A stretch of DNA of 45,831 nt from Candidatus Omnitrophota bacterium. Lineage in GTDB: Bacteria; Omnitrophota; Gorgyraeia; JABMRN01; RBG-13-46-9. Every line of letters starts with the position of its first letter. Positions within the stretch are counted from its first letter, which is position 1. Shown here piece by piece: positions 302 to 45,831 of the stretch. The DNA is taken from NCBI GenBank assembly GCA_013203315.1, contig JABMQJ010000002.1, positions 1 to 45,831 on the forward strand, read 5' to 3'. The notes below the pieces were generated by a model. It saw nothing but the letters and a program-made list of their open reading frames with translations. It was not told the DNA's origin and ran no database searches. A program made the translations under genes and the position numbers.

Positions 302-387
302 AAATTCGGTCGCAAGACCTTTTGCCGAAGGCAAAAGGACGAGGACAAAAAAGCAAATACCGCACTTTTTTGCCCGAGGCCGAATTT
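302..387. repeat. Multi-branched palindromic cluster immediately 3' of tRNA-Leu
   Basis: AAATTCGG...CCGAATTT encloses GGTC-GCAA-GACC, CCTTTTGC-CGAAG-GCAAAAGG and GGACAAAAAAG...CTTTTTTGCCC hairpins. Confidence 0.65.
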
Positions 388-396
388 GTATAAGAG

Positions 397-5329: not shown

Positions 5330-6847
5330 CTACGCCACGAAAAGGCTTTTCGATGAAAAATTCGGTTCGCAGGTAAGATTAACCCCCAGGCTTCGCAGGC
5401 CTACCTCATCTCCCGGGGTTGGGATATGTGTCATGTGGACTTCGCATTCTTTAAGTTCTTTTAGCTTTTGCATGGCTAATTTGGCCGTAGGGTTAGTAGC
5501 TGCGCTTATGCTTAAACTTATTAAGGTTTCGTCCAGATTAAGGCTAAGACTCTTCGCGCCCAAAACATCTTCTTTTAAGTTCGCTATCGACCCGATAGTG
5601 TTGGGCGATAAAAGGTGTCTTTTATCAGGTATTTCGGCTAGAACCTTAATGGCATTAAGGATAAGGCTCGAGGCAGTGTGCATCAAAGGTGAATTCTTGC
5701 CGGTAATAATTCTCCCGTCTCGTAGTTCTATGGCTCCGCCGCAAAAAATTCCCTTGTTACCTTTTTTCTTTTTCTTGGCTTCCTCGGAAGCTTTCCTGGC
5801 GGGCTTTACCACGATTCTATCTTCCGGCTTAAGATTGAGTTCTTTTAAAAGCGATTCAATCCTCTCCACTGTTCCCCGGTCAACAAAACCCAGCACGTGT
5901 TCACAAGCATACCTGAAATATCTTCTTATGATTTCCTGTTTTGCGGCCTCTTGCACTGCTTTGTCTTTTACAATCCCGAAACCGGCGCAGTTTACGCCCA
6001 TATCCGTAGGAGATTTATAGACTTCTTTGGCGCCCATTATTTTTTTCAGAATCTTTTTTAGTACCGGGAAGACCTCTACGTCGCGGTTGTAGTTAATAGC
6101 TGTTTTCTTATGGGCCTCCAGATGAAAGGGGTCGATCAGATTGAAATCCCTGAGATCCGCAGTAGCTGCTTCATAAGCTACGTTTACAGGATGTTTTAAT
6201 GGTATATTCCATATGGGGAAAGTTTCAAACTTGGCATATCCTGAATTTACGCCTCTTTTGTGATCGTGATAAAGTTGTGAAAGGCAAGTCGCCAGCTTTC
6301 CGCTTCCGGGACCGGGCGCTGTAACTACAACCAAAGGCTTATTAGTTTTAATATACGGATTAGCGCCATAGCCTTCTTCGCTTACTATCGTATCCACATC
6401 CTTAGGATAACCTTTCGTAAACTTATGGGTATATACCTTTACGCCGCGTTTTTCTAATTTATTTTTGAATATCTTCGCTGCCGGTTGGTTGTCGAATCTT
6501 GTTATCACGACAGCCAAAACATCAATGCCCCAATCCCGCAAATCGTCAATTAACTTCAGCGCATCGACGTCATAGGTAATGCCAAAGTCAGCCCTTACCT
6601 TTCTTCTTTCAATGTCGCCGGCGTAGATACAGAGTATGATATCCGCGTTATCCTTTAGTTTTTTAAGTAATCTCATTTTTACGCAAGGGTCAAATCCCGG
6701 CAAAACCCTTGAGGCGTGCATGTCATAAATAATTTTACCGCCAAACTCTAGGTAAAGTTTATTATCGAATTTTTTTACTCTCTCTAATATAGCCTTGGTT
6801 TGCTCTTTCAGGTATTTTTCATTATCAAAACCTTTTCTTTGCGGCAT
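5330..6847 (-). CDS. DUF1846/UPF0371 family P-loop protein
   Basis: GFDNEKYL, LYLEFGGK, TAPGPGSGKLATCLSQLYH, YAKFETFPIWN, YEAATADL and SPTDMGVN signatures. Confidence 0.85.
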   Translation of the reverse strand: MPQRKGFDNEKYLKEQTKAILERVKKFDNKLYLEFGGKIIYDMHASRVLPGFDPCVKMRLLKKLKDNADIILCIYAGDIERRKVRADFGITYDVDALKLIDDLRDWGIDVLAVVITRFDNQPAAKIFKNKLEKRGVKVYTHKFTKGYPKDVDTIVSEEGYGANPYIKTNKPLVVVTAPGPGSGKLATCLSQLYHDHKRGVNSGYAKFETFPIWNIPLKHPVNVAYEAATADLRDFNLIDPFHLEAHKKTAINYNRDVEVFPVLKKILKKIMGAKEVYKSPTDMGVNCAGFGIVKDKAVQEAAKQEIIRRYFRYACEHVLGFVDRGTVERIESLLKELNLKPEDRIVVKPARKASEEAKKKKKGNKGIFCGGAIELRDGRIITGKNSPLMHTASSLILNAIKVLAEIPDKRHLLSPNTIGSIANLKEDVLGAKSLSLNLDETLISLSISAATNPTAKLAMQKLKELKECEVHMTHIPTPGDEVGLRSLGVNLTCEPNFSSKSLFVA

Positions 6848-26889: not shown

Positions 26890-26918
26890 TTGACTTTTAA
26901 AATTGCGGTTGTTATAAT
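26890..26918 (+). promoter_or_regulatory. Promoter of the tRNA Pro-Arg-His cluster
   Basis: TTGACT-17-TATAAT. Confidence 0.75.
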
Positions 26919-26995
26919 AAAAAAAATTGTATTCCCTCGGTTGCTTCTATGGAATCGCAACCTCGGGATGAATTTTTCTTTAAGCGAAAAATTCA

Positions 26996-27071
26996 CGGGG
27001 CGTAGCGAAGCTTGGTTTATCGCGCCTGGTTTGGGACCAGGAGGTCGTCAGTTCGAATCTGACCGCCCCGA
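26996..27071 (+). tRNA. tRNA-Pro(TGG), CCA not encoded
   Basis: CGGGGCG acceptor stem, CCTGG-TTTGGGA-CCAGG anticodon arm, GTCAG-TTCGAAT-CTGAC T arm. Confidence 0.95.
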
Positions 27072-27097
27072 CTCTTTACAAATTTGGTTGTCGTAAA

Positions 27098-27198
27098 TAA
27101 GGTACTTCGGAAGTAAGAAAGGTCCTTCAACAATGATCAATCCTCCCATAAGTCGGATTGATAACATTGTTTCAGGATCAAAATTGTTTCACAATTTT
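27098..27198 (+). repeat. 101-bp tRNA-leader structured repeat, copy 1
   Basis: 96/101 identical to the reverse complement of 45585-45685; ends flush with G1 of tRNA-Arg(TCT). Confidence 0.92.
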
Positions 27199-27275
27199 GG
27201 GCCCGTAGCTCAGGTGGATAGAGCATCTGCCTTCTAAGCAGAGGGTCGCGTGTTCGAATCACGCCGGGCCTGCCA
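27199..27275 (+). tRNA. tRNA-Arg(TCT), CCA encoded
   Basis: GGGCCCGTAGCTCAGGTGGATAGAGCA-TCTGC-CTTCTAA-GCAGA...GTTCGAATC...CGGGCCTGCCA. Confidence 0.95.
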
Positions 27276-27338
27276 TCTATACAGATTCGGTTGTTGCAGA
27301 AAAAAGTTATGAATTTGTGAAATTGCTCCGCAAAATAT

Positions 27339-40256: not shown

Positions 40257-40290
40257 GATTTTTAAAAGGCCCTTCGTCATTGCAGATTAA

Positions 40291-40394
40291 GATCCTTCAC
40301 TCCACAAAAAATGTTTCTACTTGTTGCATTTTTTTGCGTCGCTCAGGATCAATTCCGCCTTTGGCGGAATTGATGGAGCCCCCGCTCCCTCTGA
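40291..40394. repeat. Compound palindromic element in the amidase operon leader
   Basis: Minus strand GATCCT-GA-GC-GA-CGCAAAAAAATG...CATTTTTTGTG-GA-GT-GA-AGGATC, adjoining the perfect 12-bp stem ATCAATTCCGCC-TTT-GGCGGAATTGAT and GGAGC-CCCC-GCTCC. Confidence 0.7.
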
Positions 40395-45508: not shown

Positions 45509-45584
45509 TGGTGGAGCTGAGGGGGATCGAACCCCTGACCTCATGCATGCCATGCACGCGCTCTTCCAGCTGAGCTACAGCCCC
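45509..45584 (-). tRNA. tRNA-Ala(GGC), CCA encoded
   Basis: GGGGCTGTAGCTCAGCTGGAAGAGCG-CGTGC-ATGGCAT-GCATG-AGGTCAGGGGTTCGATCCCCCTCAGCTCCACCA; G3:U70 pair. Confidence 0.95.
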
Positions 45585-45685
45585 AAAATTGTGAAACAAT
45601 TTTGATCCTGAAACAATGTTATCAATCCGACCCATGAGAGGATTGATCATTGTTGAAGGACCTTTCTTACTTCTGAAGGACCTTA
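45585..45685 (-). repeat. 101-bp tRNA-leader structured repeat, copy 2
   Basis: 96/101 identical to 27098-27198; ends flush with G1 of tRNA-Ala. Confidence 0.92.
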
Positions 45686-45805
45686 GTTTTCTCTTATTTC
45701 CTTTAAATTATACCAAACCAAAAAGAAATCACAAGCAAAATATACCGCACACAGGCAAATATGTTGAATATAAAACGTTATATGCTATAATAATGTGAAT
45801 TTCAT

Positions 45806-45831
45806 GCCGAAGTGGCGGAACTGGCAGACGC
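45806..45831 (+). tRNA. 5' part of a tRNA, probably Leu, truncated by the window edge
   Basis: GCCGAAGTGGCGGAACTGGCAGACGC has the same D-arm as tRNA-Leu at 397-478; TTGAAT-16-TATAAT upstream. Confidence 0.75.

Follow-up and report, generated by a model that had tools for sequence, protein, structure and literature searches.

The DNA considered here, hereafter the window, is a stretch of 45,831 nucleotides (positions 1 to 45,831 of contig JABMQJ010000002.1, assembly GCA_013203315.1) from a Candidatus Omnitrophota bacterium, the genome of which (G000 in the comparisons below) amounts to 1.5 Mb in 32 contigs and is 97% complete. Seven tRNA genes are called in the window. Two distinct ones, tRNA-Arg(TCT) and tRNA-Ala(GGC), which lie 18 kb apart on opposite strands, are each preceded without a gap by a stretch of 101 nt, the two stretches being near-identical. 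This pair are two members of a repeat family, here termed element E, with a long imperfect hairpin, P1/P2, followed by an 8-bp hairpin, P3. In the explanation favoured below, to which a probability of about 0.58 is attached, E is a lineage-specific, non-autonomous hairpin repeat, copied at the DNA level, placed P3-first at a T/GG junction (the stroke marking the boundary between E and its neighbour) and co-transcribed.

Two near-identical putative tRNA leaders

The stretches at 27098-27198(+) and 45585-45685(-) share 96 of their 101 bases (95% over 101 by BLAST), which bears out the five differences counted in a preliminary description of this DNA; they fall at 27104/45679, 27109/45674, 27146/45637, 27150/45633 and 27151/45632. 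As that description also had it, the terminal loop holds three of them (27146, 27150 and 27151) and the stems none. The remaining two belong to a 5' extension of 21 nt, made up of a partial copy of E's own 5' arm and a short linker. Inward, the similarity stops exactly at tRNA position 1, as had been claimed, the tRNA starts being placed at 27199(+) and 45584(-) by both ARAGORN and the Rfam tRNA model, and the two tRNAs themselves differ. Outward of 27098 and 45685 the flanks are unrelated, only 7 of 24 bases agreeing. The fold drawn earlier for the leader is recovered with a predicted minimum free energy of -27.3 kcal/mol (z = -3.79), a stability reached by 0 of 200 shuffled sequences.

The junction at tRNA-Arg is not an assembly artefact, a suspicion raised at the outset, since contigs from two sequencing runs (X1, flagged as the possible source of the window, and X2, from another sample in that study) bridge 27110-27243. 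In these contigs the three loop variants are exchanged between the Arg and Ala loci, such that the assignment of the variants to one locus or the other is insecure, and one run-contig joint, of 45584 to 45806, has sides of 25-28 letters only, too short to interpret. A promoter had been proposed upstream of both copies. The Ala copy indeed has a promoter-like site directly upstream (Table 1); the Arg copy does not, and lies inside a Pro-Arg-His tRNA cluster with its own promoter-like site further upstream. No T-box was found, in keeping with the preliminary description: Rfam 15 over the window at gathering score gave tRNA matches only, and searches at E <= 10 on 27060-27290 and at E <= 1 on locus L003 gave no credible family.

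Structure of the element E family

BLAST within the genome yields three further, diverged copies, all beside tRNA sequence: one before tRNA-Asp, one before the 5' half of a tRNA with anticodon CAT, and one inverted at the 3' end of tRNA-Tyr. The five copies, aligned with MAFFT, gave a covariance model (CM), R1; in them 99.3% of cells are paired, and 14 of the 28 modelled pairs have changes on both sides. A second model, R2, was built from 37 sequences of 18 genomes. In the genome of the window there are 15 matches with R1 and 18 with R2, four of the latter in the window itself. Across the 37 sequences, 27 of the 28 pairs show compensatory changes, and paired cells make up 96.6%, compared with 75.7% after shuffling and no more than 52% when the partners are slid, in an alignment that was itself fitted to the model. 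From a plain MAFFT alignment of 25 copies RNAalifold predicts 22 pairs, of which 20 carry compensatory changes.

Copies of E are 60-100 nt long. The long stem has 20-22 bp with 2x2 internal loops, and the arms of P1 are imperfect inverted repeats, with P3 outside them at the 3' end. Conservation extends to the unpaired parts, namely two 2x2 TC/TC internal loops, an apical CTC...TCG and the TTC loop of the small hairpin, as well as to a G-U pair at position 4. P3 is A/U-rich and weak (-2.6 to -6.1 kcal/mol).

Table 1. Element E and associated features in the window
Feature	Position	Strand	Evidence
Promoter-like TTGACT-17-TATAAT with TG, Pro-Arg-His tRNA cluster	26890-26918	+	consensus match only
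Short E variant (one hairpin and a 10-bp P3)	26929-26993	+	R2 E = 2.1e-5
5' extension, common to both near-identical copies	27098-27118	+	within the 96/101 match
Element E, long form, ending at tRNA-Arg -1	27119-27198	+	CM R1 102.9 bits, R2 97.2 bits; fold; covariation
P1/P2 at the Arg locus	~27121-27179	+	
P3 (8-bp hairpin) at the Arg locus	27180-27198	+	
tRNA-Arg (TCT), CCA encoded	27199-27275	+	
Fourth E copy of the window, divergent intergenic region	40289-40371	+	R2 E = 9e-8
tRNA-Ala (GGC), CCA encoded	45509-45584	-	
Element E, long form, ending at tRNA-Ala -1	45585-45664	-	R1 102.6 bits, R2 97.2 bits
5' extension, same as 27098-27118	45665-45685	-	
Promoter-like TTGTGA-16-TATAAT with TG, upstream of E/tRNA-Ala	45707-45734	-	consensus match only

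The short variant lies 2 nt before tRNA-Pro (TGG, 26996-27072) and ~10 nt after the promoter-like site of the cluster, and the fourth copy is not flush with any tRNA gene or Shine-Dalgarno site. At the end of the window, 45806-45831(+) is the first 26 bases of a tRNA-Leu-like gene, to which a promoter-like site at 45764-45791 belongs. This gene is divergent from tRNA-Ala, unlike in the congener G001, where the Ala and Leu tRNA genes are in tandem.

Placement of the copies

The 18 copies in the genome fall into a few contexts. Seven are flush (0-2 nt) with the 5' end of a tRNA or tmRNA gene on the same strand (Arg-TCT, Ala-GGC, Asp, Pro-TGG, Ser-TGA, Ser-CGA and tmRNA), one precedes the CAT tRNA fragment on contig C2, and four are inverted and flush at a tRNA 3' end (Tyr, Val-GAC, Ala-CGC and a truncated copy at Val-TAC). 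Four more lie directly before GGAGG and a start codon (dnaK, clpP, ilvC and a ptsN-like gene), one lies 17 nt before the start of an open reading frame (ORF; C18:78156-78217), and the fourth copy of the window has another context. In other words, 12 of the 18 adjoin a tRNA gene, a tmRNA gene or a tRNA fragment, a bias towards tRNA that sets E apart from ordinary scattered repeats. A wider count of 81 matches, at 47 loci mostly of G031, G008 and G006, comprises 15 that directly adjoin the 5' end of a tRNA or tmRNA gene, 24 in inverted orientation that are flush with a tRNA 3' end, 15 at Shine-Dalgarno sites and 27 others, this last class taking in tandem partners and copies beside tRNA-like fragments. 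Several tRNAs of G031 and G006 have E on both sides. The proposal in the preliminary description of a small mobile element at tRNA 5' ends therefore survives in part: the family is multi-copy, with near-identical members and with filled and empty sites (see below), but its targets are wider and include inverted placement at tRNA 3' ends and Shine-Dalgarno sites.

In every context P3 points to the junction. Of 110 matches, 101 end in T, and the neighbouring sequence begins with GG in 61 and with TG in 21. The junction is nearly always T/GG, a trait of all three contexts; the complementary strand reads CC/A. Where E adjoins a tRNA 3' end, the GG usually stands opposite the encoded CCA. The tRNA-Tyr gene lacks CCA; here E overlaps the discriminator base and adjoins the acceptor strand, and it is from this position that placement is seen to follow sequence and not the mature RNA end.

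The last point bears on whether E spreads through RNA, its transcript being joined to, or reverse-transcribed from, mature tRNA ends with their 5' phosphate and CCA 3' terminus. Junctions at tRNA +1 and often at CCA agree with such a route, and the inverted layout is what would be expected of tRNA-primed complementary DNA. It is nevertheless highly unlikely in view of the tRNA-Tyr copy, of the Shine-Dalgarno junctions, which are not RNA ends, and of the flanked tRNA genes, which are the sole copies in the genome for their anticodons.

Outside tRNA genes, 27 copies have the start of an ORF in the sense direction within 30 nt downstream. The genes downstream of E include dnaK, clpP, tuf, rpsO, rpsF, ssb, spoVG, glnB, fba and purH, and in front of many forward copies, at a distance of 4-45 nt, there is a -10-like box.

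Some further features at tRNA and tmRNA genes were seen. On C2, positions 5969-6008(-) contain the 5' half of the CAT tRNA, with the acceptor, the D arm and the stem and loop of the anticodon; the tRNA breaks off behind that loop, and a full copy of E stands in front of it. Its 3' half was not found in the assembly, nor an integrase beside the fragment, and ARAGORN with intron and pseudogene options makes no call on it. For the tmRNA gene (C18:1269-1652) a tag of 32 residues is predicted, which is unusually long; a collapsed copy of E (a minimal hairpin and P3) directly adjoins the 5' end of this gene. A second motif, roughly TCTTATAC[TA][GA]ATT[TC]GG and then a small hairpin or A-run, stands directly 3' of at least 9 of 40 tRNA genes, with sites in the window at 27073-27090, 27276-27293 and ~380-395(-) and others on contigs C11, C12, C13, C17, C18 and C24; its ...AAATTYGG part resembles the E junction. 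In G031 and G014, inverted E copies (L056:1394-1427, L086, L078 and L027) adjoin ~20-nt duplicates of tRNA 3' ends, which are followed by a shared GC-rich motif that looks like another small element at the tRNA T-loop region.

Distribution and recent copying

Matches to R1 are present in 22 of 41 genomes, that of the window included, with up to 37 in one genome, and in 12 of the 13 other members of its family. Sampled across the phylum, R2 at E <= 1e-5 finds E in 19 of 151 genomes from several classes, and in 0 of 47 from the largest family. A pattern scan of viral contigs gave 10 matches, approximately the chance number by a rough estimate, of which R2 confirmed 0 and 0 lay near a tRNA.

That copies have multiplied recently follows from two kinds of evidence. 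First, near-identical copies stand at unrelated loci, the pair described above among them: in G006 the copies after tRNA-Cys and tRNA-Leu have an identity of 0.95, in G031 two copies before two genes have one of 0.93, and the clpP and ilvC copies of the window's genome are ~90% alike when compared by eye. More generally, 32 of 82 copies have their nearest neighbour within their own genome. Second, sites filled here are empty in the congener G001, as the preliminary description had proposed to look for. In the grpE-dnaK spacer E fills the interval from the stop codon to GGAGG, an interval of 7 nt in G001, and the region upstream of dnaK is without E in all 11 relatives compared (G001 and ten more); R2 matched 1 of 30 dnaK loci. 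The tig-clpP spacer likewise holds E here and is empty in G001. Conversely, the spacer between tRNA-Leu(GAG) and tRNA-Glu(CTC) is 11 nt here and holds two E copies and an ORF in both G001 and G005. The left boundary of the insert is soft, because the flanks of G000 and G001 have diverged.

Other hairpin-forming inserts, unrelated to E and belonging to several repeat families, are found in tRNA genes and operon spacers of relatives. A tRNA-Glu pseudogene of G005 is split by GC-rich hairpins (L010, ~1330-1500), the ilvH-ilvC spacer of G001 holds three hairpins (L274, C43:11750-11929), and there are further inserts at L245 and L248.

The picture that best accommodates placement and copying is one in which E multiplies within genomes at the DNA level, probably by an insertion step in which the P3 end of each new copy would be set against a G-rich boundary at the T/GG junction. 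This boundary is either the start of a tRNA or tmRNA gene, or the strand opposite a tRNA 3' end (CCA or acceptor strand), or a GGAGG ribosome-binding site. Since these target sites lie inside transcription units, E would be co-transcribed. At tRNA-Arg(TCT) and tRNA-Ala(GGC) it would then form the leader of the pre-tRNA, and RNase P would be expected to cut between T(-1) and G(+1); in operon spacers it would be a structured stretch just before the ribosome-binding site. The host may benefit, for example through hairpin caps that protect processed RNA ends.

Candidate partner enzymes

Two kinds of enzyme were considered as partners of E. Palindromic elements derived from IS200/IS605 have hairpin ends, a short fixed target beside one end and a Y1 TnpA. 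For E the junction reads CC/A on the complementary strand, and Y1 transposase genes are present in 34 of 41 relatives; no Y1 gene was found to be flanked by E. The genome has two Y1 genes. One, a Y1-like gene of 164 aa at C18:80273-80767 (L270, 1456-1950), is itself flanked by 19-22-nt inverted repeats other than E (L270, 1337-1397 and 1961-1998) in a layout like that of a REP-associated tyrosine transposase (RAYT), where REP stands for repetitive extragenic palindromic. At six Y1 loci the best R2 matches, with filters off, have E >= 0.1, and with no E at the six loci the Y1 transposase was dropped as a candidate.

The second kind is a small GIY-YIG protein. In three genera an ORF of 83-84 aa (PF01541, E = 5e-20 and 2e-17) lies between inverted E copies, the P3 hairpins of which face outward to the tRNAs: in the Leu-GAG/Glu-CTC spacer of G001 and G005, and in the Val-TAC/Asp spacer here (C18:145752-146141, left copy truncated). 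The window's genome has exactly one such ORF (C18:145799-146047; L004:1238-1489). It might thus be supposed that solo copies of E are the left-over ends of a larger cassette in which the nuclease moves or maintains E in trans, much as RAYT transposases are thought to mobilise or maintain REPs. This is improbable. Homologues of the GIY-YIG gene occur in 38 of 41 relatives, some of them without E, and of the 30 best GIY-YIG loci the 18 with a tRNA gene include all six strong E matches, as against 0 of the 12 that are tRNA-free. Moreover, the gene in the Val/Asp spacer looks vertically inherited, judging by identities of 78%, 69% and 59% across genera. The association is explained by a common location, both E and the gene living in tRNA spacers, and the GIY-YIG protein was therefore set aside as a partner.

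GIY-YIG ORFs are found in tRNA-tRNA spacers across the class (Val-TAC/Asp, Leu-GAG/Glu-CTC, and beside Lys-TTT and Tyr; L034, L010, L038-L066). Those homologues that bear an organism name come mostly from Candidatus Omnitrophota MAGs. In G007 an ORF between tRNA-Leu(GAG) and tRNA-Glu(CTC) (L016, ~1680-2030) presumably resembles the four-helix-bundle proteins of 23S rRNA intervening sequences.

Element E as RNA

The genome encodes a type A RNase P RNA (C22:1312-1714, 184 bits), and the two leaders end at tRNA -1 with a T (U in the RNA), as a leader removed by RNase P should. The alternative in the preliminary description, a processing signal released by RNase P, is a possibility for these leaders; of the sequencing runs listed as containing the window stretch, none is of RNA. 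On the modelled fold, bases -1 to -8 would be taken up in the P3 helix, which would stack on the acceptor stem. RNase P of E. coli is blocked by a hairpin that covers the bases immediately ahead of tRNA +1 (PMC7897497). By analogy, a flush hairpin at +1 should hinder RNase P here also; P3 may merely slow access, being weak.

These features allow a bolder reading, in which E is a new kind of site-specific mobile element that homes via T/GG to the edges of stable-RNA genes and of ribosome-binding sites and in which P3 gates RNase P, so that E both parasitises and tunes tRNA maturation, being placed by a hitherto unrecognised nuclease or transposase. Candidates for the placing enzyme would be the small E-bracketed GIY-YIG protein or a Y1 protein. 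As a whole this reading is doubtful.

RNase III presents a different case. RNase III-type stems are familiar from the hairpins between the early genes of phage T7 and from the stems that bracket rRNAs, and E could in principle be such a stem, cutting polycistronic tRNA or mRNA transcripts apart. A 20-22-bp stem with 2x2 loops would suit the enzyme and would work in either orientation, and several tRNAs of G031 and G006 are bracketed by E. Searches with PF14622 and PF00636, the positive control of which succeeded in 8 of 14 named genomes and indicates imperfect sensitivity, did not find RNase III in the window's genome, in 13 other genomes of the family or in four of a sister family; RNase E/G and RNase Y are present in the window's genome. 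RNase III was found in 7 of 41 relatives, the E-rich G031 included, such that E occurs both with the enzyme and without it. Given that the enzyme was not found there, a role for RNase III is unlikely in the window's own family. The bracketing copies, moreover, are complementary only to family level (L035, by eye). A leader-trailer duplex between them was considered and rejected: the two copies at tRNA-Met (L035) differ in length and in P3 sequence, from which it follows that these two fold locally. Processing by RNase III is accordingly a very improbable explanation for E.

Strand asymmetry offers another view of E as RNA. Counted on E's own strand, G-U pairs exceed A-C pairs by 39 to 3 in the Shine-Dalgarno class, by 32 to 9 in the tRNA 5' class and by 48 to 22 in the inverted tRNA 3' class. 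The excess fits folding as sense RNA in the first two classes. In the inverted class it does not settle the matter, because the tRNA transcript there would carry the complement of E.

Weighing a mobile repeat against a host RNA module

Several points weigh against the favoured reading of E as a repeat copied at the DNA level. No mobilising enzyme or transposase for E was identified; there is no E near the Y1 gene of the genome, and the occurrence of Y1 genes does not parallel the number of E copies: in G008 and G028 there is E and no Y1 match. No target-site duplication was seen at the grpE-dnaK, tig-clpP and ilvH-ilvC spacers, where the flanks of G000 and G001 are only ~73-92% identical. The 5' ends of tmRNA and of tRNA-Asp carry E in both G000 and G031, which belong to different families. 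The G-U excess in Shine-Dalgarno copies and the conserved unpaired bases have the look of selection on RNA, as does the position of E shortly after -10 boxes and before dnaK, clpP, tuf, rpsO, rpsF and ssb. Finally, a hairpin that hinders RNase P should be costly for a purely selfish insert.

An alternative is that E is in the first place a host RNA module, a leader or spacer structure acting in cis on heavily used RNAs (tRNAs, tmRNA and abundant mRNAs), which it would insulate or protect or the processing of which it would time; duplication to new sites would be rare and secondary. In such a module the strong hairpin would cap ends after endonuclease cuts, and the accessibility of tRNA +1 or of the ribosome-binding site would depend on the weak P3. 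The strong covariation and conserved loops speak for it, together with the G-U excess of the Shine-Dalgarno and tRNA 5' classes, the sense orientation of all 27 protein-gene copies close to the start codon, the nature of the downstream genes (with spoVG and glnB besides those just named), the proximity of copies to -10 boxes and the T at -1 in 101 of 110 matches. G001 and G005 each have a copy after tRNA-Leu(GAG); the two are apparently orthologous and, compared by eye, differ by paired changes. In E. coli a flush hairpin is a proven gate to RNase P (PMC7897497).

On the other side, inverted copies at tRNA 3' ends keep their own polarity, in loop bases and in the G-U at position 4, although the tRNA transcript there would present the complement and hence another RNA. 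G001 manages without E before dnaK and clpP, the distribution in the phylum is patchy and near-identical copies stand at unrelated loci. Furthermore, compensatory changes in palindromes can arise by template switching, without selection, which counts against reading the covariation as a sign of host function. A host module is a possible but less likely alternative to a DNA-level repeat that, once transcribed, would act as an RNA leader.

Relation to known elements

REP and REPIN sequences are defined, together with the RAYT (Y1) transposases, by a 20-40-bp palindrome, a GTAG/CGTC tag and a RAYT gene flanked by the repeat (PMC3733652). Like them, E is short, palindromic, hairpin-forming, multi-copy and non-coding, lies between co-directional genes where it is plausibly transcribed, persists in a lineage and is copied within genomes. 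The GIY-YIG ORF between inverted E copies also recalls the RAYT genes flanked by REPs (PMC3733652). Unlike them, E has 60-100 nt and two hairpins in place of a single 20-40-bp palindrome, is not flanking the Y1 gene of its genome, and lies flush upstream of ribosome-binding sites and at tRNA ends, not mainly downstream of ORFs. Among 110 matches, GTAG/CGTC, on either strand, occurs in the 14-nt window at the 5' end in 5 and in that at the 3' end in 4. Since size, tag and RAYT flanks all fail, E is rated as of the kind of REPs and of miniature inverted-repeat transposable elements (MITEs) but outside the REP family.

Among MITEs, the Correia elements of Neisseria have ~100 nt and inverted repeats, are co-transcribed and form RNA hairpins that RNase III cuts. 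E resembles them in being non-autonomous, of ~100 nt, based on imperfect inverted repeats, probably co-transcribed and perhaps able to alter RNA processing; it differs in that no target-site duplication was seen at the three spacers with their diverged flanks, in having P3 outside the inverted-repeat arms and in belonging to a family in which RNase III was not found. To our knowledge, neither the T/GG junction rule nor flush placement at tRNA +1 or CCA is known from MITEs. Mobile DNA at tRNA gene boundaries is also a property of Ty3 and of the Dictyostelium TRE elements, autonomous retroelements which, guided by Pol III factors, land within a base or two of tRNA genes. E is, by contrast, an 80-nt bacterial repeat, and is found at Shine-Dalgarno sites as well.

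The closest likeness to P3 as RNA is a synthetic sequestor hairpin, the 3' strand of which forms the last bases of a tRNA leader and adjoins +1, which is the geometry of P3; that hairpin is engineered, ligand-switched and blocks E. coli RNase P, whereas P3 is natural and weak, with no ligand domain evident (PMC7897497). The GIY-YIG ORFs, as distinct from E, can be compared with SegB of phage T4, a free-standing homing endonuclease of the GIY-YIG type, the gene for which lies in a tRNA cluster (PMC2330249). Both are small GIY-YIG genes between tRNA genes, but the ORFs here are chromosomal, have 83-84 aa with the catalytic domain only, are conserved across genera and are predicted nucleases.

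A literature search with the motif letters gave unrelated primers only, and the literature searched on Omnitrophota, REPIN/RAYT, MITEs and REPs with RNase P contained nothing that resembles E. Neither in that literature nor in Rfam was a family found described with base-exact placement at tRNA +1, at mirrored tRNA 3' ends and at ribosome-binding sites.

Significance

Hairpin repeats are common in bacteria; it is the base-exact choice of site that makes E unusual. The covariance model of E would let annotators mask or label its copies. Enzymatic placement would point to a targeting mechanism not yet known. Should the hairpins matter as RNA, E would represent natural masking of leaders where RNase P cuts, in a lineage in which RNase III was not found, and would bear on the maturation of tRNA operons and of operon-internal mRNA in these little-known bacteria with small genomes.

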